Notes under the pieces: generated by a model
Database searches by the model: none
Seen by the model: the letters and a program-made list of their open reading frames with translations, nothing else
What the model was told of the DNA's origin: nothing
Shown here: positions 5,872 to 30,151 of the stretch, piece by piece
How positions within the stretch are numbered: position 1 is the first letter of the stretch
How the letters are laid out: every line of letters begins with the position of its first letter
Program-made: the position numbers and the translations under genes
NCBI RefSeq assembly: GCF_028368995.1
Contig: NZ_JAQNDL010000003.1
Span: 1,760,001-1,824,000, forward strand
Direction: 5' to 3'
Source: Nannocystis bainbridge
GTDB taxonomy: Bacteria; Myxococcota_A; Polyangia; Nannocystales; Nannocystaceae
Length of the DNA: 64,000 bases

Positions 5872-6378
5872 GGAAGCACCTTAGCCATTCACCCGAGGCG
5901 AAGGCGCGCACGCACCGGACGATCGACGGCCTGTTCCGCGCAGCGACGCGAAAATTCATGAAGTCCCAGTCGGACGACAGAGCACGACGGCCATCCGCGC
6001 GCACGTTCCTGTCGACCGCGAAAGCCACCCAGGCTGCCTGTGCGGATAGCTGCTCGTTTCGCCGCGAGCGTTGACGAACGACACGCCGGTCCGGTCGACG
6101 CCCTGAAGATTCACTCCTCGGCGAGGTGCTCGCAGGCGGATGGCCGCGGGCTCACGAGGCATTCGATCCGAAAGACTGCAGATTGCCACCACGACGACAA
6201 GCTGCAGTGGATGCAGGTACCGGGCTCTGCTGCTCCGCTGTGGTGATCCCTCGCACCTTTCCAAACCACTTGCGGCGATCGATGAGATGCTGTACTGCGG
6301 TCACCGCGCGCCCCATGTCGAGGCGGGTTCGATACGCGAGCCCGACTCGGGTCAAATCAAACGAGTAGAGGTCTTGTC

Positions 6379-6921: not shown

Positions 6922-7314
6922 TACGGCGCTGCTGGCACCGAGCACGGTCAGCCCCCGCTCGGTGATGCGCTCGAGCGCGTTCGCTTCCCGACGAGCACCG
7001 TCGCCGGGCGCGCGCGTGTCCGCCTCACGCTCGATGAAGCGCTCACGTATTCGGCGTTCGCCCCCGTCATACATCCTGGATCACTGCGACGAATCCTCGA
7101 CCGTGTGACCGCGAGCCAATCGCATGACCGCGATCTCCCTCGACCTGGAGTTCATCGCGTGTCCGGCTCGCAGCATCACGCAAGCGGACAGGCGTTCGGG
7201 CCGGCGGGAGCGGGTCCGCGGCCACACCTGCGCCCTCGCAGCGCAACGCGCGCCCCCACGCATCCTACGACCTCGGCAACGCCGCGGGGATATGCCAGGG
7301 TTTCGGCCTCGCGC

Positions 7315-14364: not shown

Positions 14365-15339
14365 ATGGCCGACGAACTCCTGAACGCCCTCGGGCGGCTC
14401 GCGCGCGAGCAGAGGGCCGCCGCTGACGCCGACCCGCGGACCGGCCCGCTCACCGCCGACGAGCGCGACGACCTGCTGGCCGGCGTGCTCGCGCGGCTGC
14501 AAGCCTCCGGGCCTGCTGCGACCTCGCCGCAAGACCCAATCGCGCCGCCGAAGCTGCACAGCGAGACATCGCTGCAAGACCCCGTAATCGCGCCGCCGCA
14601 CAGCGAGACCTCGCTGCGGGGCCCTGCAATCGCGCCCCTGCACTCCACCGCCACCTCGCTGCAAGACCCTGCAATCGGCCCGGCGCCGCCGCCCAGCGAG
14701 ACATCGCTGCAAGACCCCGCAATCGCGCTGCACGCCACCGCCACATCGCTGCGAGACCCCGCAATCGCGCCCCTCTCCGCCGACGCGCCCGCTCCGCTCG
14801 CCAGCGAGCCCTCGCCTCCCGCCCCGACCAACCTCGTCGAGCTCGCCCCTCGCCGCCGCGCCCGCTGGTTCGCCGGCCTCGGCTCCCTCGCGGCGGCCGC
14901 CGCCCTCGCCCTCGTCCTCCTCCGCGGCGGCGGCGAGCCCTCGCTCGACCTCCCGGCCTACGCCCTCGTCCGCGGCGGCGACGCCACTTCTCGCGCGCAC
15001 GACGCTCCCCCGAGCGCCTCGCTGCGCCTGCGCGTCGACAGCCCGGTCGACCTCGTGCTCGCCCCCGCCACCCCCGTCGCCGGCCCCGTCGAAGTGCGCC
15101 TCGTCGCCAGCCAGGCCGGCGCCGCGCGCTGGCTCGTGCCCGACGCCACCGTCTCCGCCGACGGCGCCATCCGCCTGCGCGGCGCCGCGGCCTGGGGCCT
15201 CCCGGCCGGCCGCTGGCAGCTCGCCGTCCTCGTCGGCCGCCCGGACCGCCTGCCCGCCGACCTCGCCGCCTGGCAGGCCGCCACGACGCCCGAGTGGCAG
15301 GTCCTCGCGCTCGAGCTCGAGGTCGTGGGTGCCGACTGA
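14365..15339 (+). CDS. Putative single-pass membrane anti-sigma factor with internal repeats
   Basis: Directly after the ECF sigma; short N-terminal helical domain, repeat linker, TM helix WFAGLGSLAAAAALALVLL, beta-rich C-terminal domain; GGAGG RBS. Confidence 0.65.
   Translation: MADELLNALGRLAREQRAAADADPRTGPLTADERDDLLAGVLARLQASGPAATSPQDPIAPPKLHSETSLQDPVIAPPHSETSLRGPAIAPLHSTATSLQDPAIGPAPPPSETSLQDPAIALHATATSLRDPAIAPLSADAPAPLASEPSPPAPTNLVELAPRRRARWFAGLGSLAAAAALALVLLRGGGEPSLDLPAYALVRGGDATSRAHDAPPSASLRLRVDSPVDLVLAPATPVAGPVEVRLVASQAGAARWLVPDATVSADGAIRLRGAAAWGLPAGRWQLAVLVGRPDRLPADLAAWQAATTPEWQVLALELEVVGAD
14521..14770 (+). repeat. Six in-frame 42-48 bp repeats encoding TSLQDPAIAP-like units
   Basis: Units begin at 14521, 14566, 14608, 14653, 14701, 14743; core ac(a/c)tcgctgcaagacccngcaatcgcg. 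Confidence 0.85.
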
Positions 15340-18058
15340 CCCGCTCCGCCGCGCCTGCCTTTTTGCGCCCACGCTCGCCGCGGCCCTCGCCTGCGAACCG
15401 CCGGCGCCCCCGCAGCCCGCCGCCCCCCTCGACGTCGAATTCGTCGGCTGCGAGGCCGTCCTGCGCGGCCCGATCTGCACCGTCGCCGCCGAGCCCGCGC
15501 CGCTGGTCCTGTGGATCGACGCCGCCCCCGGCCGCAGCTTCGCCGCCAGCATCGACGGCGCCGACCTGCCCACCACCGCCCGTACCGTCGCCGGTGGCCT
15601 GCAGCTCCGCCTCACCCCGCCGGCGCGCGGCGGCACCCTCGAGCTCCGCGAGCCCGGGCACGACGCTCGCTGGTCGCTGCCGCTGCGCCCCTCGTTGCGC
15701 GCCCCGGCCCTCGCGCCTGCCTGGGCCTCGCTGCGCGCCGGTGACCTCGACGCCGCCGAGGCCGCGCTGGTCCCCGGCGACGATCCTCGGACCCGCGCCG
15801 AGGCGCTGACCCTGCGGCGCAAGCTCGCGTTTCGCCGCGCCCAGGCGGCCCGCGGCGAGGCCCGCGAGGCCGCGATCGCCGGGGCGCTGCAGCTCGCCGA
15901 AGCCGCCGTGCGGGCCGCCGACGCCGCCGATCTCGCCAGCGAGATCGGCGAGACCGCGCTGGCTGCCGCCTGGCTGGCGATCCACGGCCAGCGCGACATC
16001 CTGTCCGCAAAGACATGGCTCAGGCGCCAGCAGGCGGCCCACGCCCACGACCCCCGGGCCCGGGCCACCGCTCCTTATTACGCCGGCCTGGCCGCCTACG
16101 CCGCCGGCGATCTGCGCGGCGCCCTGCGCTCGTTCGCCGCTGGCGCGGCGCGGAGCCGCCGGCTCGACCTCGTGGCCGACGAGCAGGCGGCCGCGGCGAT
16201 GCACGCCGTGGTCCTGGCGGAGCTCGGCCGCGGCGACGAGGTCCTGGCCCAGGCGCGCCGCGCCGGCCTCACCGCCGCCGCCCTGCAGCCGTGCGACCGC
16301 GCCGCCCTGCTCACCAACATCGGCTGGTCGCTGCTGCTGCTCGCCGAGGCCGGCCAGCCCGCCGACGACCCGACCGCCGCGCTCGAGCAGGCGCTGGCGC
16401 TCAGCGAGCCCGGCGGCGCCTGCCCGGACCCGGCCAAGGCCGACAACCTGCGCATCAACCTCGCCCTGGCCGCGCTCGGGCGGGGCGAGCCCGATGAGGC
16501 CCGGCCGCTGCTGGGCCTCGTCCGCGAGCACGCGCCGACCGGCCGCGCCGCTCTGTGGCTGCGCGAGCTCGAGGGCCGCGCCGACCAACTCGAGGGCCGA
16601 CCGCTCGCCGACGCCGAGCTGCTCGCGCGCGACCCTACCGAGCTCGAGCCCGGCCTGCGGTGGAGCGCCGCCGTGCGCCGCGGCCAGGCCCTCGCCCGCG
16701 CCGGCCTGCCCACCGCCGCCCTGGCCGTCTACGCCGGGGCCGAGGCGCTGCTCGACGACATGCTGCGCGCCATCGACCTCGACGAGGGCCGCGAGCTGTT
16801 CCTCGCCGGCAAGCTCCGCAGCTCGCGGCTGCTCGTCGACCTGCTCGTCGACCTCGGCCGCCCCGACGAGGCCCTGTGCGCCGCCCGCCTGGCCCGCCTC
16901 CGCTCCCTCCGCGCGCTCGACCGCGCCGCCCGGCTCGAGTCTCTCGGCCTCGCCGCCCGCGAGCGCTGGGACGCGGCGATCGCCGAGCACCAGCGCCGCC
17001 GCGAGCGTCACGGCCAGCTCGAGCGCGACGCCTGGCGCTTCGTCGGCCCCGCCGGCGAGCGTCACGACCAGCGCCGCGAGCTCGAGCGCGACGCCGCGGC
17101 CCGGGCCCTCGACGCCGCCTACGCCGCCCTCGGCGACACCGCCCCACCCCCGCGCTGCGCCGACCTGCGGCCGCCCGGGCCCGACGAGCTGCTGCTGCTC
17201 GTCGTGCCCGGCGACGACGGCTGGCTCGCCTTCGCCAGCGATCGCGACGGCGTCGCCGTGGTCCGCCTGCCCGAATTCGACCCCCGCCACCCCGCCGCCG
17301 GCGACCTCCTCCTGCGACCGTTCGCCGACCGCCTGGCCCGCGCCGCCCGGCTCCGCGTCATACCTGTCTCTTCGGACATCCAGCTGCACGCCCTGACCGT
17401 CGCCGGCGAGGTCGTCGCGGCCCGCTGGCCCGTCGCCTACTCGCTCGACCTCCCCCCGCGCCCGCCCCCCGCCGCCGGCAGCCGCGAGGCCCTCGTCGTC
17501 GCCGACGCCACCGGCAACCTCGCCCACGCCCGCGACGAGGCCCGCGCCGTCGCGGCAGCGCTCGCGCGCGGCGGCTTCCACGTCACCCACCTCGAGCACG
17601 GCCAGGCCACCACCGCCGCCGTCACCCGCGGCCTCGGCACCGCCGCCCTGCTCCACTACGCCGGCCACGGCAAGCGCGAGGGCGTGAGCGGCTGGGACAG
17701 CGCCCTCGCCCTCGCCGAGGACGCCAGCTTCGGCGTCGGCGACGTCCTCGCCCTCCCGCGCGTGCCCGCGACCGTCGTCCTGTCCGGCTGTGAGACCGGC
17801 GCCAGCGACCCGTTCGCCCTCGCCGGCGGCATGAACCTCGCGCGCGCCTTTTTGCTGGTCGGCGCCGACGCGGTGATCGCCGCCAGCGACGTCATCGACG
17901 ACGCGCTCGCGGCCGAGGTCAGCGCCGACCTCTATCGCAGCCTCGACCCCGACGCCCCGTTCGACGCCCCCGCCCGCCTGCGCGAAGTCCTGCTCGAGCT
18001 GCGCCGCGCCCACCCGGCCACCGACGAGTGGAAGAAATTCCGCGCCTTCGTCCCCTGA
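15329..18058 (+). CDS. CHAT-domain (caspase-like) protease with TPR-like region, probable lipoprotein
   Basis: Catalytic motifs LLHYAGHG and VVLSGCETG, LARAFLLVGA, terminal W..F; N-terminal lipobox AAALAC. Confidence 0.9.
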   Translation: MPTDPLRRACLFAPTLAAALACEPPAPPQPAAPLDVEFVGCEAVLRGPICTVAAEPAPLVLWIDAAPGRSFAASIDGADLPTTARTVAGGLQLRLTPPARGGTLELREPGHDARWSLPLRPSLRAPALAPAWASLRAGDLDAAEAALVPGDDPRTRAEALTLRRKLAFRRAQAARGEAREAAIAGALQLAEAAVRAADAADLASEIGETALAAAWLAIHGQRDILSAKTWLRRQQAAHAHDPRARATAPYYAGLAAYAAGDLRGALRSFAAGAARSRRLDLVADEQAAAAMHAVVLAELGRGDEVLAQARRAGLTAAALQPCDRAALLTNIGWSLLLLAEAGQPADDPTAALEQALALSEPGGACPDPAKADNLRINLALAALGRGEPDEARPLLGLVREHAPTGRAALWLRELEGRADQLEGRPLADAELLARDPTELEPGLRWSAAVRRGQALARAGLPTAALAVYAGAEALLDDMLRAIDLDEGRELFLAGKLRSSRLLVDLLVDLGRPDEALCAARLARLRSLRALDRAARLESLGLAARERWDAAIAEHQRRRERHGQLERDAWRFVGPAGERHDQRRELERDAAARALDAAYAALGDTAPPPRCADLRPPGPDELLLLVVPGDDGWLAFASDRDGVAVVRLPEFDPRHPAAGDLLLRPFADRLARAARLRVIPVSSDIQLHALTVAGEVVAARWPVAYSLDLPPRPPPAAGSREALVVADATGNLAHARDEARAVAAALARGGFHVTHLEHGQATTAAVTRGLGTAALLHYAGHGKREGVSGWDSALALAEDASFGVGDVLALPRVPATVVLSGCETGASDPFALAGGMNLARAFLLVGADAVIAASDVIDDALAAEVSADLYRSLDPDAPFDAPARLREVLLELRRAHPATDEWKKFRAFVP

Positions 18059-18069
18059 CGAAAAAAGTT

Positions 18070-18096
18070 TGTAAGCGCCGGCCGCCTCGTCGCCAA
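18070..18096 (+). promoter_or_regulatory. Putative ECF promoter TGTAAG-N15-CGCCAA with upstream A-tract
   Basis: aaaaaagtt TGTAAG cgccggccgcctcgt CGCCAA cgag. Confidence 0.7.
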
Positions 18097-18231
18097 CGAG
18101 TCGATGTCAGCCGTCGACGGCCACCGCCCCGCGAGCCGCCGACCACCCTCCGCCCTTCGCACCTGCGCGCGACGATCCGTCGCCGGTGCAATCGCGGCGA
18201 CGCCTCCCGCTCGCCGAGAAAGCCACCCATC

Positions 18232-18870
18232 ATGCCCCTGCGCTCGCTCTCCTTCCTGATCTTCACCACGAGCCTCGTCGCCGGCCTCGTCGCCCCCGAA
18301 GCCGCCGCCACCGAGGTCGCCAGCAACGTCCCGTTCGCCGCCATCGAGCCGGTCATGCTGCGCTACCCGGTCGGCAGCCTCGGCGCCGACCTCCCGATCG
18401 AGCTCCGCGTGCGCCACCAGAACCTCACCCACCGGCTCGAGGGCGCGTGCAAGCTCAAGCTCGTCTCACAGAGCCCGCCGAAGCGCCGGCTCGTGTGCCC
18501 CGGCGTCGGCTCGGTCGACGTCGAGCTCGTCGAGCAGCTCCCGGCCCAGCTGTCCTTCCTCGCCGACCTGCGCGACTTCCAGCTCGCGCCCGGCATCCCG
18601 GGCGAGCTCCGCGGCGTGGTCCTCGGCGACGACGAGCCCCTGATCTCCTCCATCCGCGTCGAGCGCCACTGGTTCTGGGGCGTCAGCTGCATCCTCGAGC
18701 CGACCGACGCCAACAAATGCGACCTGGCCTGCGGCCTCGTCGGCGCCGCCGACAGCGAGGTCCGCGGCTACGCCGACCACGTCAACGACCAGTGCATCGC
18801 CATCTGCAGCTGCCTCGACGCCGCCGGCCACATCCTGACCAACACCGTCGTCGCCACCGCCCCCTTCTAA
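18232..18870 (+). CDS. Secreted hypothetical protein with Cys-rich C-terminal domain
   Basis: Signal peptide MPLRSLSFLIFTTSLVAGLVAPEAAA, strong GC3 bias, six C-terminal Cys. Confidence 0.75.
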   Translation: MPLRSLSFLIFTTSLVAGLVAPEAAATEVASNVPFAAIEPVMLRYPVGSLGADLPIELRVRHQNLTHRLEGACKLKLVSQSPPKRRLVCPGVGSVDVELVEQLPAQLSFLADLRDFQLAPGIPGELRGVVLGDDEPLISSIRVERHWFWGVSCILEPTDANKCDLACGLVGAADSEVRGYADHVNDQCIAICSCLDAAGHILTNTVVATAPF

Positions 18871-18883
18871 AAGACAATCAATC

Positions 18884-19007
18884 TGTCCCTCGAGACAGCT
18901 CGCTGTGCTCCGCGAAGACCTGTCCCTTCGCACGCCCCACCGAGGCCCTCGCCGACCTGTCCGTTCGGACACCTCCCCGCGTCCTCTCCGACCTGTCCCT
19001 TCGGACA
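18884..19007. repeat. Four TGTC-N6-GACA palindromes at 36-37 bp period
   Basis: Copies at 18884, 18921 (degenerate), 18958, 18994. Confidence 0.85.
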
Positions 19008-19082
19008 TCATCGGTCTCTGGCCGCTCCAGACGAATACCCGATCACCGCGGTGTTTCACCGCCCACCACGAAAGCTTCAGCC

Positions 19083-19712
19083 ATGACCACCATCTTCCGC
19101 ACCCTCCTCGTCGCCTCCACCCTCTCTGCCGTCGCCCTCGCCGTCCCCGCGCGCGCCGAGGCTGCTTGCGGCAGCTCCGCCGCCACCGTCGCCGGCGACG
19201 TGTGGGAGCAGTTTCACGACGAGGCCCTCATGCTCGGCTGCGCCGCCGGCTCGGTCCTCGCCAGCGTCGACTTCGACGACTGCTACGGCACCCTCTCCTT
19301 CTACAACGACATCTTCGACGCCATGGTCGGCTGGTGGAACGACATGGCCAACAACAGCTGGGCCACGATCGGCCCGCGCCAGCTCCAGTGGAGCGGCATC
19401 ATGAACGGCACCCTGCAGCTCGGCGGCGGCCGGGTGTTCTGCAGCGCCGCGCCCTCGAACAAGGACACCGTCGAGATCTCCATCGAAAAGCTCGACGGCC
19501 GCGCCGAGACCGAGGTCGAGATCTGCAAGATGCGCAAGGACGGCTCGTCGCTCACCACCCACACCTTCACCTTCGCCAACGGCCTCGACAACGTCGGCAC
19601 CGTCAAGACCCGCACCGTCACCGGCGCCAAGGACGACGTCATCTGCGTCCACCTCAACAACAAGTCGGTGACCAACTCCTTCCAGTACTCGATCGACGCC
19701 GACAAGTTCTGA
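19083..19712 (+). CDS. Secreted hypothetical protein
   Basis: Signal peptide ending ARAEA, strong GC3 bias, WWNDMANNSWATIGPR motif, beta-rich C-terminus. Confidence 0.8.
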   Translation: MTTIFRTLLVASTLSAVALAVPARAEAACGSSAATVAGDVWEQFHDEALMLGCAAGSVLASVDFDDCYGTLSFYNDIFDAMVGWWNDMANNSWATIGPRQLQWSGIMNGTLQLGGGRVFCSAAPSNKDTVEISIEKLDGRAETEVEICKMRKDGSSLTTHTFTFANGLDNVGTVKTRTVTGAKDDVICVHLNNKSVTNSFQYSIDADKF

Positions 19713-19791
19713 GCGGCCCCGCCCGACCGACCGCAGCCCGGCGAGCGCCTTCGCGCCGCCGCGGCGCTTCGCCGTCGCAAAAACTTTGGTC

Positions 19792-19818
19792 TGTAAGAGT
19801 CCGCCGCCTCGCCGCCAA
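19792..19818 (+). promoter_or_regulatory. Putative ECF promoter TGTAAG-N15-CGCCAA with upstream A-tract
   Basis: aaaaactttggtc TGTAAG agtccgccgcctcgc CGCCAA tgag. Confidence 0.7.
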
Positions 19819-19843
19819 TGAGGCCGGCGAGGTGATGATCGAC

Positions 19844-21928
19844 ATGCGCAAAAGCCCCAAGAACTCGGACCCTGGACACTCGACGCGCGGCTGCAGGGTC
19901 GCGGGTGCCACGGCCTTCGCCTGCGCCCTGCTCGGCGCGTGCGACAGCGACCTCCCGCCGGACCTCGAAGCGACCGCCGAAGTCGCCGATGACCTCGAGG
20001 TCCCCGCTGCCGTCGCAACAGAACACGACCCCGCGCTCCACCCCGACCTCACCCCCGAGTCCGACCCCGCCCCCGCCGACCTGTCCCTCGCGGACGACTC
20101 CTCCGACATGTCCCCGAGGACAGGCTTCGATCCCTGCCCTGAAGGGCGCCAGATCGCCCTCGACCCGCCCGGCGGCTGCACCCACCGCAGCGGTCCCCTG
20201 GGCTACTGGAAGGCCACCTCGCTGTTCGCCGAGGTGACCCCGCCCCTCACCGACGCCGGCGCTCCCCCGCCCGCGCTCGCCGGCTACTGCCAGTTCACCT
20301 GGACCCCCAATTCGCCCGCCATCCCCCCGCAGCTCACCTACCTCCCCGCCTCCGCCGAGAGCGGCCTCGCCCCCGATTGCGAGGTCGTGTGGGGTCAGGG
20401 CGACGTGCTCACCGACGCGCTCGCCGACGACCTGCGCGACGCTCACCAGCGTCACCTCGGCGCCGCCCCGCAGTTCGTCAACCCGGGCGCGCCCGTCCCC
20501 GTCACCATCGCCGTGCTCGACTCGGCCCCCAACGCCTTTGTCGACGCCCGCTCCGACCACGGCGAGAGCGTCGGCGAGACCATCCGCCGCGTCGCCTGCG
20601 CTGGCCCGGGCCAGTGCACGAACCTGGTCCGCTACGAGCTCGCCCTGCCGCGCTTCGGCGAGCACAACGTCGACTGGACCCTTGGCGGCCACTACGGCAG
20701 CCAGCGCGAGCTGGCCCAGGCGATCTTCGGCAGCGTGCGGCGGTGGAAGAGCGCCGGCGCCTCGCAGCGGCTCGTCCTCAACGTCAGCCTCGCCTGGGAG
20801 CCCAACCTGTTCGGCGGCACCGGCTCGCCCGCGACCATGCCCGCGCCCGCGCGCGCCGTGTTCCACGCCCTGCAGTACGCCGCCTGCGAGGGCGCCCTGA
20901 TCGTCACCGCCGCCGGCAACGCCACCGGCGACACCTGCCAGACCGGTCCGATGGCCCCGGCGATCTGGGAGAGCCGCGCCGCCCCGACCCCCGCGCTGTG
21001 CCAGGCGTTCGGCGTCGCCAACTCGACCTCCTCGGCCGCGTTCCCGCTGGTCCGCGCCGTCTCGGGGATCGGTCACGACAATCGCCCGCTGCAGGCGACG
21101 CGCCCCGGCGGCCGCCCGCGCCTCGCCGCGCCCGCATTCATGGCAGTCGGTGGCCCCAACGCCCAGCCGACCACGCCCCTGACCGGCACCTCGCTCGCCG
21201 CCGCCAGCGTCAGCGGCGTCGCGGCGCTCGCCTGGTCGTACGAGCCCGGCCTCACCGCCGGCCAGCTCGGCCAGCGCCTCTACGCCGCCGCCGCCCCGAT
21301 CCTCCCGCACGTCCCCGCCCAGTTCGGCACCACCGACCCGATCCGCCGGATCACCGCCTGCTCGACCCTCGCCGCCTGCACCGGCGCCCGCTGCCCCACC
21401 GTCGTCTGCAGCGCCCCGCTCCCCGACCTCGCGGCGCTCGCCGACGCCTCGTACCTCGCGGTCGACGCCCTGCGCGACGCCGACAGCCTCGACATGGTCG
21501 ACGCCCTGGCCGTGACCACCGCCAGCGCCTGCACCGACGTCTGCGGCGATTCGCTCCACACCTTCACCCCTGCAAGCGGCGCCCAGACCGCCTGCGATCA
21601 CGACGAGGTCGCCGGCCGCCAGCGCTACACCAGCCCCCAGCCCGAGTGGCCGGCCTGCCCCGCCTGCTTCCTCAGCAACAGCAACGCGACCGCCTACCTC
21701 GCCCTCGGCGAGCGCTTCGCCGATCGCACCGTCAGCGACGTCGAGCTCGAGCTCGAGGACGCCAACGCGACCCAGCGCTTCGTCCTCGGCGCGCTGCCCC
21801 TCACCGTCGACCGCGTCACCGAGGTCACCCTCCCACCCGACGAGCTGTTGGCGACCCCCCGCCGCGCGACCCTCCACATCACCTTCGCCTCCGGCGCGAC
21901 CCAGAGCAACGAGATCCCGATCCACTGA
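19844..21928 (+). CDS. S8 (subtilisin-like) serine peptidase, probable lipoprotein
   Basis: IAVLDS, SDHGESV, AAGN, LTGTSLAAASVSG motifs; lipobox LLGAC; C-terminal PQP..PACPAC domain. Start 19835 or 19844. Confidence 0.9.
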   Translation: MRKSPKNSDPGHSTRGCRVAGATAFACALLGACDSDLPPDLEATAEVADDLEVPAAVATEHDPALHPDLTPESDPAPADLSLADDSSDMSPRTGFDPCPEGRQIALDPPGGCTHRSGPLGYWKATSLFAEVTPPLTDAGAPPPALAGYCQFTWTPNSPAIPPQLTYLPASAESGLAPDCEVVWGQGDVLTDALADDLRDAHQRHLGAAPQFVNPGAPVPVTIAVLDSAPNAFVDARSDHGESVGETIRRVACAGPGQCTNLVRYELALPRFGEHNVDWTLGGHYGSQRELAQAIFGSVRRWKSAGASQRLVLNVSLAWEPNLFGGTGSPATMPAPARAVFHALQYAACEGALIVTAAGNATGDTCQTGPMAPAIWESRAAPTPALCQAFGVANSTSSAAFPLVRAVSGIGHDNRPLQATRPGGRPRLAAPAFMAVGGPNAQPTTPLTGTSLAAASVSGVAALAWSYEPGLTAGQLGQRLYAAAAPILPHVPAQFGTTDPIRRITACSTLAACTGARCPTVVCSAPLPDLAALADASYLAVDALRDADSLDMVDALAVTTASACTDVCGDSLHTFTPASGAQTACDHDEVAGRQRYTSPQPEWPACPACFLSNSNATAYLALGERFADRTVSDVELELEDANATQRFVLGALPLTVDRVTEVTLPPDELLATPRRATLHITFASGATQSNEIPIH

Positions 21929-22177
21929 GCCTGGAGCGAGCCGGCGCGACGGAGTCGCCGCACGGCCGAGCCCCGCGCTCGGCCATCGTCTCGGCATCGA
22001 ATCGAGCGAGCGTCCCCAACGCCCGCCCGACTCTCATCATTCTCTGCCCCGAACTGCCCCACGATTCGAACTCTTATCATTCCCCTCCGCAGCTGGGCTC
22101 GCCGGCTCGCTCCTCTCCCGCACTCCCGGGGGTCTCTCGCCTCGCCCCGCGATTTCGTGATAGATGCGATCACCCCC

Positions 22178-23314
22178 ATGTCTGCCGACCCCGCCGAGTT
22201 CACGCAGTTCTTCCTCGACCTGCTCGACCTGTGCGCCGTCATCCCTGGCGCGCGCGTCCCTCCCGGCGCCAGCGACCCCGAGCTCGCCGCTCTCGAGGCC
22301 GAGCTCGAATACCCCCTGCCTGCCGATTTACGGACCGCCCTGAGCCTCTGTGACGGCCTCGAGGCCCCCGAGCTCGCCGGCCCTGGCAGCGACGCCGGCC
22401 TCCTCTCCGTCGCCGGCATCCGCGAGCGCTGGCGGTCCCTGCGTGAGCTCGACGGCGCCGCCGATCGCCGGCTCTTGCCGATCGCCGACGACAACGGCGT
22501 CCTCCGCTACCTCGTCCTGATCCCCGGCTCCAAGCATTTCGGCGCCGTCGCCACCTGGGACAGCGACGGTGACGCCTGGGGCGTCGTGCGCGGCAAGCCC
22601 GTCGCCAGCCTGCGGGCCCTGCTCGAGAAGGCCCTGCCCAAGCTGCAGAAGAAGCTGCCCAAGGGCCTGCCGATCATCCCCGGATTCGCCCGCGGCGCCG
22701 CCCCCGACCCCGACACCCTCGCCGGCATCATCGCCGGCCTGCAGGCCAGCCTGAAGAGACACCAGCCGATCGACGACCGCCTGCAGTTGTTCGCCCGCGA
22801 CCCTGCCCTGCTGACCGCCATCCTCGACGCCCTCCTGCGCGCCGGGGCCCCGCTGCTGGCCCTCGCCGAGCATCACCCCCACGTCGCCCAGGTCGCAGCG
22901 CGGCTCGACGCCGGCCTCCTGCTGGCCGCGCTCACCCGCTACGAGCCGGTCGCCACCCCCCACGAGCCGCGGCTGCTGCTCGACTGGAGCGCCCACCTCG
23001 ACGACATCACCGCCGCCCTCGTCGCCCGGTCGGCCCCGAGGTCGAGGAGAGCTGAGACTCCGCCCCGTCGCTCAGCCCCGAGCGCGTCGCCACGCGCCCG
23101 CCGTCACGCTTCGCCTGAGCCGGGTGAAGGTGGCAGATGCACCGGCAGACGTCGTCGCGCAGTTGCCGGCCACAAGCGGTTCAGATCCAACTCGCGCACC
23201 CAGCGCTTTCCACCGCTCGACGACATGGCGCCAGGCGCGCTCAAGTGGCCGTCAAGTTGCCCGAGGGGTCCCAAGGGCTGCTCTCCGGAAAGTTTGAGGA
23301 GCCGAATCAAGTAG
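22178..23314 (+). CDS. SMI1/KNR4 family protein, probably truncated near 23030
   Basis: PGASDPELAALEAELEYPLPADLR..DG SMI1 signature; GC3 bias and protein-like composition collapse after about 23030. Confidence 0.65.
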   Translation: MSADPAEFTQFFLDLLDLCAVIPGARVPPGASDPELAALEAELEYPLPADLRTALSLCDGLEAPELAGPGSDAGLLSVAGIRERWRSLRELDGAADRRLLPIADDNGVLRYLVLIPGSKHFGAVATWDSDGDAWGVVRGKPVASLRALLEKALPKLQKKLPKGLPIIPGFARGAAPDPDTLAGIIAGLQASLKRHQPIDDRLQLFARDPALLTAILDALLRAGAPLLALAEHHPHVAQVAARLDAGLLLAALTRYEPVATPHEPRLLLDWSAHLDDITAALVARSAPRSRRAETPPRRSAPSASPRARRHASPEPGEGGRCTGRRRRAVAGHKRFRSNSRTQRFPPLDDMAPGALKWPSSCPRGPKGCSPESLRSRIK

Positions 23315-23474
23315 CCGTCACGTACAACCCCGCCCGAGAATTAGATTTGGCAGGCTCAAATCTTCGCCGCAGAGCGCGCCAATCAAGTACCCGTCAAGTT
23401 CGCTTCTGCCCAAATACCCCGCCGCCCCGAAGTTTGAAGCCCAGCGAGGTCTGGGAAGCAAGTAGCCATCAAGT
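23241..23474. repeat. Four interspaced 17-bp repeats, consensus TCAAGTAGCCGTCAAGT
   Basis: tcaagtggccgtcaagt 23241, tcaagtagccgtcacgt 23307, tcaagtacccgtcaagt 23383, gcaagtagccatcaagt 23458; spacers 49, 59 and 58 bp. Confidence 0.85.
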
Positions 23475-24959
23475 GGACCCCCTGGCCGACGAGGTCGCCC
23501 ACCAGGGCAGGTACTGCATGAGCTTGGGAGCCGCGGCAGCGTCGCGGGGCACGATGACGCCCGCCTCGACCGCATCCCGCAACAACCGCGAGGCCATCGC
23601 TCGGTTCGGCTCCGAGATGCCGAAGCGCTCCCGTATCGTCGAGTTCGTCACCGGTTCACGCTGCACGTACTTGAGACAGGCATGCCAGTAGCAGGCCCGG
23701 ACGCGCTCTTCTTTGTCCATCTGATTGAAGTCGCGGGGCGCGAACAGCACGACTCGCGTGAACCCGGGGGGCGTCTCGAACAGCGGCGGCGGGAGTTGAT
23801 GCAGCTCGACCTGTGCGACGACCTTGTCGATGCCACTGCCACGCTCCTCACAGATACGAAATCTCCGCATGAGCGACGCCAGCGTCTCGTTGCGAGAAAA
23901 AGGCGGGCTGTCGAGTAACCTCTCGACGGCCACCAACGGCTCGCCCGGATCGGTGATTTCCACGCGGCCGTCGAAGACCTCGACCATCGGCCCCGCCCCG
24001 GTGACCGAAAAATCCTGGTGAATGAGCGCGTTGGCCACCAATTCCCGGACGGCCAGCTCCGGGAACCTCGGGACCTGGTGTCGCAGCGCCTGCCCCACGA
24101 CCTCGGTCGTGGGCAGGATCCCGTTCAAGTAGACCAGCAACCCCTCGAAGCCACTCGCGTAGCCCCTGCCGTCGAGCTGCTCTCGAACTGTCTCGGTGCG
24201 ATCGCGGCCGCGGTACTGGATCACTCGTACCGCCTTGCGGCTCAAGCTGGCGAAGTCCGAGATCCGCTTGGCGAACAGGATCGCTCCCAGATTGGTGATG
24301 TCCCAGGTCTCTGCGTTCGCTACGACGAGTTGGTCGCGCCTGAGCGCGTCGAGGATCGCGCTGCGCCCGTCCGGCAGCGGGAGCTCCAGAAGATCGAAGT
24401 AGGACGGATAGTCGAGCATCTGCAGGACTTCGTCCTCACTGAGGTGTGGGGCGGCGATGCCCTTTTCGAAAGGCACCCTGTCGAACAGGCGCCAGAGCTC
24501 CCGCTCCTTCTCGGGAAAGTCCCCGAGCGGCTTCTTGTAACTCCCGACGCGGATGTACTCCCGACCCGAGAAGCTCACAGGGCGACCCGAAGCGGCGACG
24601 ATCTCCAGCAATACGACCCGTTTCCCGTCGAGCTCGACGGTCGAGAAACTGAATTCGATGCGAGGTTCGAGGAGGCGCAGCAGCCAGCTCTCCAGCGCTT
24701 CGTTGCCCTTACGGGCCTTGTTCGGGTCGAATTGGGTCCCGACGATCGCATGATCATCGTCCTTGATTCCCCATACCAGATACCCCCTGGTCTTGCTTGC
24801 AAGGGCAGCCCCGTTCGCGAGGGCCGAAATATACTCGCCGATCTCTTGCGGCTCGGCGTTGTCTACCTTGAACTCCACCCAAGGGGTCTCCCCCGGCAGC
24901 TTGCACAGTTCCCGCACGAGGCCTTGCAGATACGAGGAACTTCGGCCCGGCGTCGGCAT
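23469..24959 (-). CDS. Schlafen/AlbA_2 domain + HATPase_c_4-like + winged-HTH protein
   Basis: ETPWVEFK, ISALANG, YLVWGIKD, YIRVGS (AlbA_2); RELVANALIHQDF, EITDPG, SRN, EERGSGIDK; C-terminal wHTH ending YLPWWA. Confidence 0.9.
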   Translation of the reverse strand: MPTPGRSSSYLQGLVRELCKLPGETPWVEFKVDNAEPQEIGEYISALANGAALASKTRGYLVWGIKDDDHAIVGTQFDPNKARKGNEALESWLLRLLEPRIEFSFSTVELDGKRVVLLEIVAASGRPVSFSGREYIRVGSYKKPLGDFPEKERELWRLFDRVPFEKGIAAPHLSEDEVLQMLDYPSYFDLLELPLPDGRSAILDALRRDQLVVANAETWDITNLGAILFAKRISDFASLSRKAVRVIQYRGRDRTETVREQLDGRGYASGFEGLLVYLNGILPTTEVVGQALRHQVPRFPELAVRELVANALIHQDFSVTGAGPMVEVFDGRVEITDPGEPLVAVERLLDSPPFSRNETLASLMRRFRICEERGSGIDKVVAQVELHQLPPPLFETPPGFTRVVLFAPRDFNQMDKEERVRACYWHACLKYVQREPVTNSTIRERFGISEPNRAMASRLLRDAVEAGVIVPRDAAAAPKLMQYLPWWATSSARGST

Positions 24960-25052
24960 TCCCCGCTATGATAGCAAAAATCACCGCGCGAGCAGCGGCT
25001 GAGCGTTCCTGGTACCAAGGGATTGGCCACGAGGTCGACAGGGCCTCTCGCG

Positions 25053-25793
25053 TCACTCCGCGTCGGCCGCGACCTCCGCGTCGAGCGCCTGGGCCCACCA
25101 CGCCACGCGCTGCGCCACGTGCTCCTTCGCCACGTTGCCCGCGATCATCTCGAGCTCGAACGTATAGTTGTCGACCTTCCCGCGGATCATGTCACCGAGG
25201 CGATGCCGCGTATTCGTCACCCAGTAGCCCTCCGAGAAGATCCGCAGCTGCTTCGCCGAGAAGCTGCGCGCCCGCCCCAGCGCCCGGCCGAACGGATAAC
25301 GGCGGATCGTCCGCGCCTCGAGGTCGACCACGAACATCGGCCGCCAGTACACCATGAAGAAGCCTGGCAGCCCGATCACCGTCACCGCCAATGCCACCTC
25401 CGCAGCGGAGATCCTCTGGGTGCTCGACTCCCCGCCCCAGACCTCGGTCGATCCGCTCAGGATCACCGCGAACAGCCCGAGCCACAGCAAGAACGCCCCG
25501 AAGCCGGCGATCATCAGCTCCGTCACCGCGCCGAGCTCTCGCGTCCGCGTGATCACGAGCCCCGGCGCGTCCGGCCGCAGCGCCTCGAGACGGAAGATCC
25601 GCACCGCGCTGACCATCAACACGGGCGTGATGATCGCGAACGCCAGCCACCCGGGCCCGTCCATGCGGTAAATTTCGCCGAACAGCAGGACCCTGACGAA
25701 GCCGGCGGCCATCAGCACCGGCATCGCCGCGCGCACCGCATCGCCAAAATGCAGCCCCTTTAAAAATCCACTCGCTCGCGGCACGTTCGGCAT
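25053..25793 (-). CDS. Hypothetical membrane protein (about 4 TM)
   Basis: Four hydrophobic stretches in the ORF portion starting MPNVPRA. Confidence 0.65.
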   Translation of the reverse strand: MPNVPRASGFLKGLHFGDAVRAAMPVLMAAGFVRVLLFGEIYRMDGPGWLAFAIITPVLMVSAVRIFRLEALRPDAPGLVITRTRELGAVTELMIAGFGAFLLWLGLFAVILSGSTEVWGGESSTQRISAAEVALAVTVIGLPGFFMVYWRPMFVVDLEARTIRRYPFGRALGRARSFSAKQLRIFSEGYWVTNTRHRLGDMIRGKVDNYTFELEMIAGNVAKEHVAQRVAWWAQALDAEVAADAE

Positions 25794-25920
25794 GGTCCCT
25801 CGCGCTCGCCGACAGCGACGAGCGCGACCAGGATACACCGCGCCGCGGCCCGAGGACCGCCCGTGCCGCGACCCCGAACGAGCGCAAATCAGCGCATGCC
25901 CCTCGACGCTGTGGCGCCAC

Positions 25921-27873
25921 TCACTGCGGCACGACGCGCGTGACCAGGCACGATTGCCCGCTGCACTGCAGGACGGCCGCGCGACCGACAGCCGTCGAGA
26001 GGTACCGGAGCGGGCCCGCGACCGGCGATGCCGGCAGCGGCTGGTCGGTGGGCCAGGCGAAGACGCCGTCCTTCCAGGACCACAGCGCGGTGCCATGATC
26101 GCCGGAGCTGTCCACCAGCCCGGGCTCCACGCGGGGCAGCTCCTTGCCAGTCCCGCGCTCGTGGCGGGCGTCGTTGACGACGAGCACGCGGCCGTGCTCG
26201 AGCGCGGCACCCACGTATGTCTGATAGCGGCCGGGGCTCGTGAAGCGGCGGCCGAGGGCGCCCGTCGCCGCGTCGATCTCGACCACGCTGGTGGCCCCCG
26301 TGGGCGAATCACCGTGCTCGAGCCCGCCCGGGGCGACGGCGTACAGGGTCTTGCCGTCGGGCACGACGATCAGAGTACCGAGCGGGCCGAGCTTCGGGAT
26401 CGACGCGCGCCAGTCCTCCTTCATGCTGGCCGCGTCGATCCTCACGACATGGGTCTGGCGGTCGTCGCCGAACGAGCCGGCGTAGACATGCCGGCCGTCG
26501 ACCGAGAGGGTCCAAAAAGCCGCGATGCGGGTGTCGCTGCAGGCGCGCGCGCCGGTGCGGAGGTCGACGCGGCAGAGGCGGTGGTCCTCGATCCCCATGG
26601 CGTTCGCGGCGTCGGGCAGGACCGCGAGCTCGACGAGCGCGGGTCGGTTGGGGAGCGCGGCGACGCGGGTACAATCGCGGGTGTCCCAGATCGTCAAGTG
26701 GCCGGCCGAACTGACCACGGCGCGGTCTCCTCCCGGGGACAGCGCGCTGGCTTCGATCCGGTACAGCCGCCCGGGCGCGACGAGGTCCTCGCCGGTCGAG
26801 GCATCGATGACCCGCACGCCGCTGTCCGCGGAGTGGGCGACGCGCGCGCCGTCGGGCGAGAAGGCGAGCCGGCCGACATAGGGGAGACCCCATTGCGTGA
26901 ACAACGGCCGCCCGCTGGCGACGTCGAGGATCGCTAGACCGTATTCCTGGGTCGGTTGCGATCGCTCGAGCACGAGGCCCAGCCGCTGCGCCGACGGCGA
27001 GAACACGAGGCTGCTGACTCTCGCGCCCGCGGGCGGCTTGAAGCTGGATACCGCTGCGCCGGACGGGGCGGCGACGAGGCGCGTCTGGTCGCCGTCGACG
27101 AATGCGACGAGTCCACCGTCGCGCGAGAGCGCGACCTCACCGAGGTATTCGCCGGTGCGCGCGACGAAGGCGACCTCCTGGCGCGACGCGACATCGAACA
27201 CGTGGATCCCGTCGCCCCGGTATTCGCTGTCGCGCGTGCGGCTCGGCGCGAGCGCGGCCCGCCGACCGTCGCCGCTCACGGCCGCGGTCGCAAGCTCGGT
27301 GCCGGCGCACAGCTCACCCTCCGCGCGGAGGCCGTCGCCGAAGAGGCTCACGCAGGCGCTGCCGCTGCCCTGGAGCTGGATCGCGGAGTGACAGTCGTCG
27401 GCGGGAATGACCTCCCTCGTCGACGGGAGCGGACGCTTGCTCACGGGCTCGCGCCCCGGCATGCGCAGCAGCGCGACCTCGCCGCTGGCCTCGGTCGACA
27501 TGCAGGTGCCCGACGGCGAGACGCCGGAGGTGAGCGCGAGCTCGAATTCCTCGAGCGTGGCGCCCGACAGGGCGTCGGCGACGCGCCAGCGGCCGAGGCC
27601 CTCGAGGTACAGGCGATCGGGCGCCGGAAACAGCACGAGGCCGTAGTTTCGCACCGTGGCGAGCCGGTCGGAGCCGATCCGGCAGGTGAAGCCGGGCGGC
27701 AGGTCCTCCGCGGCGGCGCGAGCGTCCGGAGCGGGCAAGGACTCGAGGACGCGCGACCTGGACTCCTGCGAGACGCCGGCCTCGCCGGCAGGGGCCTCGG
27801 GCGCGCGCTCGGCCGGGGCACAACCGGCCAGGAGGAGGAGGCTCAGGGCCGCAGCGAGACCGGCGTGGAGCAT
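25921..27873 (-). CDS. WD40/beta-propeller lipoprotein
   Basis: Lipobox LLLLAGC; repeated (A/V)FSPDG/LSRDG blades and TIWD motif. Confidence 0.8.
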   Translation of the reverse strand: MLHAGLAAALSLLLLAGCAPAERAPEAPAGEAGVSQESRSRVLESLPAPDARAAAEDLPPGFTCRIGSDRLATVRNYGLVLFPAPDRLYLEGLGRWRVADALSGATLEEFELALTSGVSPSGTCMSTEASGEVALLRMPGREPVSKRPLPSTREVIPADDCHSAIQLQGSGSACVSLFGDGLRAEGELCAGTELATAAVSGDGRRAALAPSRTRDSEYRGDGIHVFDVASRQEVAFVARTGEYLGEVALSRDGGLVAFVDGDQTRLVAAPSGAAVSSFKPPAGARVSSLVFSPSAQRLGLVLERSQPTQEYGLAILDVASGRPLFTQWGLPYVGRLAFSPDGARVAHSADSGVRVIDASTGEDLVAPGRLYRIEASALSPGGDRAVVSSAGHLTIWDTRDCTRVAALPNRPALVELAVLPDAANAMGIEDHRLCRVDLRTGARACSDTRIAAFWTLSVDGRHVYAGSFGDDRQTHVVRIDAASMKEDWRASIPKLGPLGTLIVVPDGKTLYAVAPGGLEHGDSPTGATSVVEIDAATGALGRRFTSPGRYQTYVGAALEHGRVLVVNDARHERGTGKELPRVEPGLVDSSGDHGTALWSWKDGVFAWPTDQPLPASPVAGPLRYLSTAVGRAAVLQCSGQSCLVTRVVPQ

Positions 27874-28164
27874 GCGCGCATCCAAGCGCACCGGCCGGCG
27901 AGAGGCAAGCGCCGGCGAGCGAACGCGCGGCGAAATCCGACGAGGAGGCCCCTCGATGCCTCGCACAGTTCCGGGACAGCTCGATGCCTGCATTCCAGGC
28001 AGTCATCGTCGCGGTCCCATCATAGCGCCTTCACTTGCGTGACGTGCAGGCCAGCCCGACACACCGTGGGGATCTCTCTGTCACAGCGAACCCCCACGAC
28101 GCGGCGTCGATGTACGCCGCGGGTCCGCTGGTGAATCGCGGCAGTTCGGGTTATCACCACCCCG

Positions 28165-28881
28165 ATGCAACGACTCTCTCGACTCGCCCTTTGTGCATTC
28201 GCGCTCGAGCTCGCCTGCGGCGAAACGACCGGCTCCACCAGCGGCTCCACCGGCGAATCGACCGACGGCGGCACCACCACCAGCACCGGCACCACCGACG
28301 ACACACCGACCGGCACCAGCACCACGACGACGACCCCAGAGTCCTCGACCGGCACCAGCACCGGCGAGCCGCTCACCACCGGCGGCGAGCCGACCACCCT
28401 CGGCACGACCACCGAAGCGGCCACGACCTCGACCGAGACCACCGGCGACACCGACACCACCGGCCCCCCCGCCGAGCCCCTCACGCGCGCCTGGTGGGTC
28501 GACGGCAACACCCTGCAGCTGCGCATCCTGCAGCAGGACAATCGCGTCGGCCTGTGCCGCGGCCTCATCCTCGAGGCGCTCGCCAGCGGCGGCGTCGACA
28601 CTCCCGCCTACGAGCCCATCGACCAGCCCGCGGAATGGGCCGTGCGCTACGTGTTCGTGCACGACGCCCCCGACGATTGCTTCGACCCCTACACCTGGTA
28701 CGAGAACGAGCCCGCCTCGGCCGCCGCCGCCACCGGCACGATCACCCTTCATGACGCCGACGCCGACGGCCAGCCCGAGACCCTCGATCTCGAAGTCACC
28801 GGCACCTACGCGCCCTCGGCCCCGTGGACCCCCGCCGAGGACCTGCTCGCCGCCGCCGGCGTCGTCGTCGAGATCGGCTGA
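28165..28881 (+). CDS. Hypothetical lipoprotein with Thr/Gly-rich linker
   Basis: Lipobox ELAC, TTG-rich linker, small globular C-terminal domain. Confidence 0.8.
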   Translation: MQRLSRLALCAFALELACGETTGSTSGSTGESTDGGTTTSTGTTDDTPTGTSTTTTTPESSTGTSTGEPLTTGGEPTTLGTTTEAATTSTETTGDTDTTGPPAEPLTRAWWVDGNTLQLRILQQDNRVGLCRGLILEALASGGVDTPAYEPIDQPAEWAVRYVFVHDAPDDCFDPYTWYENEPASAAAATGTITLHDADADGQPETLDLEVTGTYAPSAPWTPAEDLLAAAGVVVEIG

Positions 28882-29295
28882 CCTCGCGCCGCGCTCGCCG
28901 AACCTGCGCCCCCGGAGGCATCGACTCCATGCGACAGACCGCGCTCCGATCGCCGCTCAGGTGGCGTCCGGACCGGGCCACGGGTCGCCGTTTTCGGCCC
29001 GGCGACGACGAACGCGAGGAGTCGGCAGGTCTGCCTCGTCGATTCGCTCCGGGCCGCCATGGATGAATGGCGGTACCGCCTCCAGCTTGAGCGGACCTGC
29101 TGCCGGATCGCTCGAGGACGGTTCTACGCGCCCACCATGCCCCCGAGGATCGCTTGGTGCATTCATGCCCCGAAGATAGCATGCAGCTCGCCGACCGCAC
29201 GACCCCGCGCGCACCGGTCGGCACGAATCCGTAGCGAGACCGGTCACCACGCGAACCCGCCACCGAGACCGCCGCACGACCCGCGCGCCGAGACC

Positions 29296-29649
29296 GCCTG
29301 CAGGCCACATTCGCTTCGCGCAAGCCTGTAAACCACTTTCGCCTCACGCAAGCCTGTAGGCCACTTTCGCCTCACGCAAGCTCATAGGCCACTTTCGCCT
29401 CACGCAAGCCTGTAAACCACTTTCGCCTCAAGCAAGCCTGTAGGCCACATTCGCTTCGCGCAAGCCTGTAAACCACTGCCGCCTCACGCAAGCTCATAGG
29501 CCACTTTCGCCTCACGCAAGCCTGTAGGCCACTTTCGCCTCGCGCAAGCATGTAGGCCATTTCCGCCAGCACGCAAGCCTGTAGCCGCTGCAGCCCCGAA
29601 CCCGACCGCGTCGTTGCGCAAGCCAGTAGACCGATTCGTCACTGCGCAA
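29296..29649. repeat. 28-bp tandem repeat, about 10 copies plus one detached degenerate copy
   Basis: Consensus gcctgtaggccactttcgcctcacgcaa; units start every 28 bp from 29296 to 29548, partial unit at 29577, degenerate unit 29622-29649. Confidence 0.95.
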
Positions 29650-30151
29650 ACCCGTCGTCGACATCTCCACGAGCCGGCGCCCGCGTCGTGCAGCGATCGC
29701 TCGCACCGTCTGAGTGCGGGCAGAGCCGAACCATTCGGCCGCGACGCCCGCGACCGGCGCGAGAGCGGCCTGCGCCGGTCCAGGTCGAACCGGACTCCGG
29801 CACTCTCGTGGATCTCGCCGCGGCGCCGCATCCTCTGAAAAGTTGTTCCCGCGCGATCGGCCTCCTTTCATCGATCATCGCGCTGGTATGCCAGCATACA
29901 ATCGCGACGCTCGCGCGGCGGAGAAGCCGAGAGACCGGAGGCCGCAGGAGCTCGCGCACGACGAGCCAGACGCCCACGCGCGGGTCACCGGGCGAAGCCG
30001 GCGCTCGCTTACGAAGCGGCGCTCGCCGGCTGCGATCGGCGGAGAGCGACGCGAGGCGCGATCGTTCCGCGGCGGCGACCCGCGCGCCGGCATCGACCGG
30101 TCCGCCTCGTACCCGTTCGCGTGCGCCGGAGCTTGTGGCAACTTCGACCCG

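Follow-up and report, generated by a model that had tools for sequence, protein, structure and literature searches.

Within a 64,000-nucleotide stretch of the Nannocystis bainbridge genome (contig NZ_JAQNDL010000003.1, positions 1,760,001 to 1,824,000; hereafter the window), a minus-strand gene for a 496-amino-acid (aa) Schlafen-GHKL-winged-helix protein is followed directly at its 3' end by four imperfect copies of the motif ACTTGA-N5-ACTTGA. From sequence comparison and a structural model, these 17-mers are probably (at a probability of about 0.6) cognate double-stranded DNA sites, of a docking or operator kind, for the protein encoded immediately upstream. Gene and sites form a conserved module in which the sites are strictly local, keep a constant strand and carry variable bases that covary with the DNA-reading residues of the protein. 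The pairing recurs across many bacterial phyla and hints at the recognition target of the helix-turn-helix (HTH) domain of a common protein.

The repeat array

On the plus strand the copies of the consensus TCAAGTAGCCGTCAAGT are found at 23241-23257, 23307-23323, 23383-23399 and 23458-23474, with 1, 1, 1 and 2 mismatches respectively, and none of the four matches the consensus exactly. The start-to-start distances of 66, 76 and 75 base pairs (bp) leave spacers of 49, 59 and 58 bp in plus-strand order. Numbered in the direction of the gene, site 1 (23458-23474, coding strand ACTTGATGGCTACTTGC) contains within its first hexamer the TGA stop codon (23469-23471) of the minus-strand open reading frame (ORF) 23469-24959. 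Site 2 (23383-23399, ACTTGACGGGTACTTGA), site 3 (23307-23323, ACGTGACGGCTACTTGA) and site 4 (23241-23257, ACTTGACGGCCACTTGA) lie on the same strand and are defined by the repeat match together with a whole-genome pattern search. A sequence-only reading of this DNA had described four 17-bp repeats at these places, with spacers of 58, 59 and 49 bp and the stop codon in the first copy, each repeat being itself a direct repeat of ACTTGA with an 11-bp period. That description is accurate, with the qualification that the copies are imperfect.

The number of repeat matches expected by chance in the window is 0.02, and none of 100 shuffles reached four. When a degenerate form of the pattern was searched through the whole genome of 11,048,555 bases, the four array copies were the only forward matches, with 0 in reverse and 0 for a reversed-pattern control. 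Given this low expectation and the uniqueness of the four copies in the genome, the array is real and far above chance. A shorter element is shared by spacers 1 and 3, namely the 8-mer AAGTTTGA (coding strand TCAAACTT) at 23290-23297 and 23430-23437; its context in both is CCG(G)AAGTTTGA(G/A)G, and its distances to the adjacent sites differ.

The protein encoded upstream

The gene (P0002; 23469-24959, minus strand) was delineated from the ORF, Pfam matches and an AlphaFold2 model, the latter built from 69 aligned sequences with a mean predicted local distance difference test (pLDDT) score of 88.7. The N-terminal region contains a Schlafen/AlbA_2 domain (aa 24-145, 24525-24890; Pfam PF04326, SLFN_AlbA_2, E 1.1e-20) with the arrangement E24-x4-E29-x-K31, in which all three residues are invariant in 69 of 69 aligned proteins. 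The accessible text of bioRxiv 10.1101/2025.07.24.666596 gives Ex4(E/D)xK as the Schlafen catalytic motif. This is followed by a GHKL ATPase-like domain, HATPase_c_4 (aa 321-405, 23745-23999; PF13749, E 7.3e-22), the region of which resembles histidine-kinase catalytic domains in fold. The GHKL-type residues E306, N310, P338, G339, G374 and G376 are invariant in the same alignment.

The C-terminal winged helix-turn-helix (aa 416-487, 23499-23714) has no Pfam match and is known from the AlphaFold2 model. Residues 416-485 are modelled as three helices and a two-strand wing with block pLDDT values of 86-95. The predicted recognition helix spans 450-466, and the wing, at about 472-482, has a loop running between strands 469-471 and 483-485. 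Among fold matches in the PDB, 3LMM ranks first, ahead of SLFN11/12/13/14/5, the SAMD9 nuclease domain and histidine-kinase ATP-binding domains. The 3LMM entry (DIP2311 of Corynebacterium diphtheriae, from structural genomics) is the best full-length fold match, with a Foldseek E of 3.3e-20, and it alone among solved structures also matches in sequence (E 7.2e-09; 16-19% identity); it is uncharacterised and was solved without a DNA complex. A predicted complex of two copies of the protein gave scores of 0.00 and 0.00, which point neither way.

On the strength of the Pfam domains, the modelled winged helix and the invariant Ex4(E/D)xK and GHKL residues, the protein is a predicted member of the Schlafen-GHKL-HTH class, termed pSlfn HisKinase-HTH or 'Schlatpase'-HTH. 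The features of the class that were found are the AlbA_2 domain with Ex4(E/D)xK, PF13749 after the Schlafen domain and, in the model, an HTH at the C-terminus. As far as the accessible parts of the publications on this class go (bioRxiv 10.1101/2025.07.24.666596; bioRxiv 10.64898/2026.05.29.728809; PMC12839542, NAR 2026; PMC13462974, Nat Commun 2026), the domain order AlbA_2, GHKL (PF13749), HTH and the catalytic motif are the same, and a link to restriction-modification or defence is shared, the class being tied there to restriction-modification and BREX loci. An NCBIfam search with the 496-aa protein assigned no family, and PADLOC returned weak partial matches alone, to Aga_SIR2-PNTD models over aa 187-344. 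The sequence-only reading had called the gene Schlafen/AlbA_2-wHTH; Pfam bears out the first domain and the model the second, but the GHKL domain between them and the link to type I restriction had been missed.

Conservation and locality of the sites

In total 536 relatives of the gene were confirmed (contigs, one genome per species), and sites were surveyed in the best 80 of these, which are 54-68% identical. The 80 loci derive from Pseudomonadota, Myxococcota, Nitrospirota, Acidobacteriota, Planctomycetota, Chloroflexota, Spirochaetota and others, together with one archaeal metagenome-assembled genome (MAG). Nearly all of them carry tandem 11-bp units of the form xyTTG(A/C)-yGGnT on the strand of the gene, and each 17-mer of the window corresponds to two such units placed head to tail (xyTTGA-yGGnT). 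The first cluster in the relatives has two or three units and begins at the stop codon or just past it. A second cluster is usual, commonly 85-90, 98-101 or 109-110 bp further on.

A strict site rule gave 117 forward and 0 reverse matches in the region from -30 to +700 of the stop (56.8 kb), and 20 forward and 7 reverse matches in the remainder of the loci (471 kb). Of the 80 loci, 69 have one strict site or more, and by eye the motif can be recognized in about 76-78; its presence beside homologues had been set beforehand as a test of the sequence-only reading, which these counts support. The first cluster starts within -5 to +18 of the stop in 50 of the 69 loci, and the offset of site 1 in the window (-5 from the stop) recurs in 11 of the 69. 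At L046, L057, L069 and L078 the first estimate of the stop was a few codons late, so the early site offsets there are approximate. Five loci without a strict TTGA site (L027, L032, L037, L081 and L090) show the same design with TTGC in place of TTGA, and L079 and L087 have, by eye, no convincing sites. L028 and L029 differ in having their sites 1.5 kb away, on the upstream side of the gene. The design is still visible at 49.5% identity, in a Burkholderia phage and in plasmids. Spacers are unique within and between loci, and 32 of them, anchored at the distal cluster, showed no conserved element, just weak A/T richness.

The sites are also local at the scale of the genome. In four of the five complete genomes searched, sites with matched dinucleotides occur at the gene alone and all on one side of it; these genomes hold 0-2 other matches each, in which the halves are mismatched. 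The fifth, which holds L069, gave 0 exact matches to the search pattern. A dispersed regulon and a genome-wide repeat are ruled out by this locality in the window genome and the four complete genomes.

The same data bear on the proposal that the repeats are recombination or transposition sites, that is an element end, integrase arm sites or replication iterons, of a mobile element carrying the gene. The gene is patchy across phyla at high identity, it lies in a lower-GC insert in the window, and homologues are also carried by plasmids, by a temperate Burkholderia phage and by satellite phages of Streptococcus. In addition, direct repeats spaced by one helical turn are typical of excisionase-type winged-helix proteins, such as Apl (accessible text of bioRxiv 10.1101/784983). 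However, neither the window genome nor the complete genomes searched contain an inverted or second set of sites, the genes immediately flanking the module in the window do not encode an integrase, transposase or Rep protein, the neighbours in the relatives are mostly restriction, defence or housekeeping genes, and the sites covary with the Schlafen protein itself (see below). We therefore regard such an origin of the repeats as very improbable. Transposon ends and integrase arm sites, which the sequence-only reading had named as what the motif should not turn out to be, were judged unlikely on the 0 reverse copies in the genome, the one-sided placement and the lack of a neighbouring recombinase.

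Three relatives show variations in their arrays. In L068 (a Dehalococcoidia MAG) 11 sites occupy 4468-5085 at alternating steps of 54/55 bp, a 109-bp period, between a solitary homologue and an aconitase gene. L058 (a Latescibacterota MAG) has at 4900-7300 two different AlbA_2 genes in tandem, each with its own site class: AATTGA follows the first gene and G(C/T)TTGA flanks the second on both sides, a pattern that avoidance of cross-talk between co-resident systems would be expected to give. At L101 (Streptococcus satellite phage Javan328, 1190-1282) a 41.6%-identical homologue beside an integrase is without clear xyTTGA sites; a different repeat of about 23 bp, GAATTTACTT(A/G)GAAAATAAAAATT, occurs twice just upstream of its start codon.

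Covariation of the winged helix with the sites

The xy dinucleotide at the start of each unit differs among loci (AC, AT, AA, AG, GC, GT, GG and others) and is constant within a locus, across the two halves of a site as well as across the clusters. When mutual information with the site class was calculated for the columns of the protein alignment, columns 453 and 478 ranked at the top (0.94 bits each), followed by 8, 480, 459, 470 and 468. Residue 478 shares 0.94 bits with the second base and 0.62 with the first. In the model, residues 453 and 459 are placed on the recognition helix and 478 in the wing loop.

Lys453 is found at 19 of the 22 loci with a purine as second base (AA, AG, GA, GG, CG) and at 0 of the 55 with a pyrimidine. 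Proline is the residue at 478 wherever the sites are AC (18/18 loci) and threonine wherever they are GC (7/7), with Lys or Arg at 15 of 19 AT loci and 8 of 9 AA loci. All nine AA loci have Tyr or Phe at 459, and Leu448 is present at 4/5 of the TTGC loci.

Shared ancestry was controlled for with a tree built on residues 10-410 only (79 rows), along which the site class changes at least 43 times. Independent pairs taken from this tree gave, for Lys453 and the purine class, about 8 in agreement, 0 opposed and about 2 of 10 tied (median p 0.008), and the same counts for Pro478 and the AC class. The pairings of a G first base with T/S/D478 and of an A second base with Y/F459 are weaker (4.5 and 5.1 concordant respectively, 0 opposed, p ~0.06). 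At L028 and L029 the residues are typical of the site class of the locus although the sites are distant, which makes mere hitch-hiking of adjacent DNA less likely. This fit, and the concentration of the signal on two to three residues predicted to face DNA, argue for direct readout of the sites by the winged helix. A small recognition code can be proposed, in which residue 453 would track the second base (Lys with purine), 478 both variable bases, and 459 (Tyr/Phe) an A in the second position.

Association with type I restriction genes

Type I restriction (hsd) genes are found within 3 kb of the gene in 39 of the 80 relatives, the window copy being without any, and in 31 of the 80 the next gene downstream, on the same strand, is hsdR, typically in the order hsdM-hsdS-gene-sites-hsdR. 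Judged by eye, at least 15 loci have 2-24 nucleotides (nt) between the end of the distal cluster and the hsdR start, and the trailing TGGAG of that cluster often doubles as a ribosome-binding site. More generally, of the immediate neighbours scanned in the relatives (77 downstream and 74 upstream ORFs), most have restriction, other defence or housekeeping functions. The position of the distal cluster against the hsdR start invites a controller-like role for the array.

A purely transcriptional form of that role would make the sites an operator for the next gene, with the protein timing or limiting hsdR expression and the window copy a relic left after loss of the restriction genes. The frequency and placement of hsdR just described speak for it, as do L028 and L029, where the sites precede a gene-hsdS-hsdR unit, and the apparent truncated hsdR starts after the distal cluster of L018 and L063. 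The rapid turnover of specificity (at least 43 changes of site class) is likewise the product expected of cross-talk avoidance between mobile systems. However, the sites are kept equally well without hsd genes nearby: 35 of the 41 loci lacking hsd genes have at least one strict site, as do 27 of the 31 with hsdR downstream. Arrays can be expanded at solitary loci, as in the four clusters of the window and the 11 sites of L068. Moreover, no promoter-like signal separates the window clusters, the 32 spacers hold no conserved element, and the window has no hsdR remnant after its last site. A purely transcriptional operator is, on balance, an unlikely explanation.

The stretches in question lie past the distal cluster at about 3040-3160 of L018 and 4590-4640 of L063; each resembles the first codons of hsdR (M..T.EKGLE-type) and is succeeded by unrelated sequence. 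They look like decayed restriction operons with truncated hsdR starts.

A proposed docking platform on the protein's own locus

The broader reading of the sites as docking or operator elements in cis was adopted because they persist without hsd genes, arrays can expand at solitary loci, and neither a promoter-like signal nor a conserved spacer element was found. Under this reading the C-terminal winged helix would read each 11-bp unit, the recognition helix and the wing contacting xy. Side by side on the phased clusters there would be several protomers, presumably linked by their GHKL ATPase domains, and the resulting single nucleoprotein complex would be confined within the genome to the locus that encodes the protein. 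Such a complex could act in cis as a platform over the start region of the next gene (hsdR in ~40% of relatives) and could keep a Schlafen-type tRNA nuclease parked on self DNA. We infer the physical binding, the bridging of clusters by an oligomer and the effect of binding, which may be control of the next gene or latency of the nuclease.

Several points weigh against this reading or soften it. The 80 loci are the top matches of one search and are mutually related, and the strict site rule was set after the motif had been seen, with the reverse strand and the flanks as its controls. The site labels of seven loci were assigned by eye, and the frameshifted L035 and L071 are included in the mutual-information table and left out of the tree. 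Co-inheritance could contribute to the association of residues and sites, since the end of the gene that encodes the winged helix adjoins the sites. A scan of 22900-25200 gave 0 promoter-like sites, and so none between the clusters of the window; its two terminator-like matches both lie upstream of the gene, with none inside the array. Spacing between clusters at multiples of 11, with values near 66, 88, 99 and 110, is only suggestive: a Rayleigh test gave R = 0.62 at period 11 (phase 0.4), and periods of 10.25-12 score 0.55-0.60. A site for IHF between the clusters, which seemed plausible on inspection of several loci, was rejected, the consensus not being enriched (mean best score out of 9: 6.76 on the forward strand, 6.86 on the reverse and 6.27 after shuffling). 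Finally, the strand-constant orientation and the position of the distal cluster at the next ribosome-binding site would also fit recognition of a transcript.

Recognition of this kind would make the repeats act as RNA, in the 3' untranslated region of the gene or the 5' untranslated region of the next, as a translational operator, a type III antitoxin-like RNA or a guide array. In its favour, the repeats always point the same way as the gene, the Schlafen RNase motif appears intact, and in many relatives the ribosome-binding site of the next gene is overlapped by the distal cluster. The sequence-only reading, which offered a processed antitoxin or guide RNA as one of two options, had also drawn attention to hairpins in the spacers. 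Both inverted repeats are present (AGATTTG/CAAATCT at 23343-23363 and CCCAG/CTGGG at 23440-23455), but as an RNA fold the array gains no stability over shuffled sequence (z = -0.18; 78 of 200 shuffles fold equally well or better). Rfam and tRNA scans of the window gave 0 matches. The spacers, unique within and between loci, were compared with phage and plasmid records, a step the sequence-only reading had put forward, and again 0 matches were obtained. Repeats of 17 nt with spacers of 49-59 nt and no cas genes nearby, and sites that in some relatives stand upstream of the gene, are further points against an RNA. An 11-bp period, together with covariation that involves both recognition helix and wing, is what is usually seen when duplex DNA is read, and an RNA element would sit poorly with this geometry. 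Of the two options, the processed RNA lacks support, and the DNA sites are favoured by the tandem units and by the modelled positions of the covarying residues. A function of the repeats as RNA is thus improbable. Two specific forms of array were rejected individually: a CRISPR array, as the repeats are 17 bp and imperfect, the spacers have no phage or plasmid match and no cas domains occur among the neighbours; and a type III toxin-antitoxin (ToxIN-like) array, as unique spacers separate the repeats and neither the fold score nor Rfam supports one.

A more specific possibility, put forward tentatively and considered less than likely, is a self-DNA tether: bound to the array, a tRNA-cleaving Schlafen nuclease would stay latent until the DNA is removed or competed for. 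The sequence-only reading had likewise suggested docking sites that keep the RNase inactive until DNA is lost or degraded. An ATP-dependent oligomer would be locked in an inactive state as long as its winged helices occupy the phased sites; it would be released to cleave tRNA when phage induce the degradation of host DNA, when DNA-mimic anti-restriction proteins compete or when the island is lost. By analogy, two clusters of two units could, we infer, hold a four-headed oligomer. The accessible part of the 'Schlatpase' study describes bound nucleic acid locking the nuclease in an inactive filament. If a tether of this kind exists, it would provide for abortive infection or for the killing of cells that lose the locus, and the matched sites would be a private 'safety catch', diversifying against cross-talk between co-resident systems.

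Relation to known systems

Winged helices of the Xis, Cox and OmpR/PhoB types bind head to tail on direct repeats of one helical turn and form short filaments on DNA. The head-to-tail geometry of the 11-bp units and the covarying residues 453, 459 and 478 stand alongside this direct-repeat mode of recombination directionality factors (RDFs) and OmpR-like proteins. The likeness to the excisionases (Apl, Xis, Cox) and to OmpR/PhoB would lie in this head-to-tail binding on one-turn repeats; in contrast, the predicted DNA-binding domain here is the tail of a 496-aa nuclease-ATPase, the sites are 3' of its own gene and there is no recombinase.

The C proteins of restriction-modification systems are small HTH dimers that bind inverted repeats upstream of type II restriction genes. 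They share with the present module a few strictly local sites next to a restriction gene and a fast divergence of specificity. The module differs in having a large multidomain protein, direct repeats and type I loci, and in that its sites persist without a restriction gene. PrrC, encoded in the EcoprrI hsd locus, is an anticodon nuclease kept latent through protein contact with the restriction enzyme. In the hsd-linked relatives, too, a gene for a putative latent tRNA nuclease is placed between hsdS and hsdR, although the proteins are unrelated in sequence; we know of no cognate DNA array for PrrC. In the ParR/parC system of plasmid R1, two blocks of 11-bp direct repeats in register are bound cooperatively and serve as assembly platform and operator. 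The protein in that case is a ribbon-helix-helix partition protein acting on ten contiguous repeats, whereas the present module shows no sign of a partition role.

The protein family and its restriction link are already in print; the cis element is apparently undescribed. No published description of cognate sites beside Schlafen-GHKL-HTH genes was found in the literature searched, supplements lying outside that search, nor was any statement there of what the HTH recognizes. In their accessible text the papers on Schlafen-HTH proteins treat the fused domains as possible sensors, without naming a DNA target for the HTH or mentioning an adjacent matched site array. According to the accessible part of a survey (bioRxiv 10.1101/2025.07.24.666596), HisKinase-HTH fusions account for 19.2% of 5,930 proteins. 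The 'Schlatpase' study gives an HTH for >90% of 'Schlatpase' proteins. Schlafen-GHKL-HTH is thus among the commonest prokaryotic Schlafen architectures, and the site array proposes a concrete ligand for its HTH. The element is real and conserved, has a plausible protein partner and comes with a testable recognition code, by which control of the nuclease and the link to type I restriction become directly approachable. For annotation, it accounts for the recurring short repeats that overlap the stop codons of Schlafen-GHKL-HTH genes.

Genomic setting of the locus

The gene and sites occupy, alone, a lower-GC insert at 23100-25044, delimited by the guanine-cytosine (GC) profile and by an edge of homology. 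GC is 0.58-0.68 across ~23100-25044 and 0.72-0.81 immediately to the left. Of the 72 other genomes in the family, one yielded the gene, and there just as a 93-aa fragment. Homology with genus relatives restarts at 25044-25056, just beyond the stop of a conserved membrane-protein gene; the left edge of the insert is unmapped because these relatives share only 22521-22818 on that side. A tblastn search of 18001-30000 with 13 Hsd queries detected no hsd genes, and the immediate neighbour genes contain no cas domains, integrase, transposase or Rep. Given the low GC, the rarity in the family, the resumed homology on the right and the absence of hsd genes nearby, the module is a solitary insert of ~2 kb consisting only of the gene and its sites. 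We think that the window copy was acquired horizontally, with four clusters and without restriction genes.

A remnant of hsdR past the last site of the window is unsupported, as 33 of 100 shuffles reach the best alignment score. A 41-codon ORF (23104-23228, minus strand) begins 13 nt past that site; it has no similarity to the hsdR starts of relatives and shows no other sign of being a gene. At the opposite end of the insert a terminator-like hairpin with a T-run is present at 24982-24999 (minus strand), 23 bp upstream of the start of the Schlafen gene.

A second HATPase_c_4 gene of the genome, followed by tandem GGACATGCCC-N4 repeats, was considered as a parallel case and rejected. The units, with a 14-bp period, occur at L104 (1798-1872; G000 contig 3) and are dispersed through the window's genome, where 476 forward and 360 reverse copies were counted allowing up to 2 mismatches, 0 of them within the window. 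As the repeat is genome-wide, it is uninformative about the second gene.

The neighbouring SMI1/KNR4 (SUKH) gene (22157-23314, plus strand) runs into the array from the other side. Its coding signal, a GC content at third codon positions of at least 0.93, ends near 23056; beyond this the frame continues through ~86 Arg/Pro-rich codons across the array, open by chance, to a stop at 23314 in site 3. The natural 3' end of the SUKH gene may have been replaced on arrival of the insert. Upstream of it, at 15329-21928 on the plus strand, a CHAT-domain protein (909 aa), an unassigned 280-aa ORF and a 1007-aa subtilase S8 protein are encoded in a row, an arrangement that could be a protease-based conflict system.

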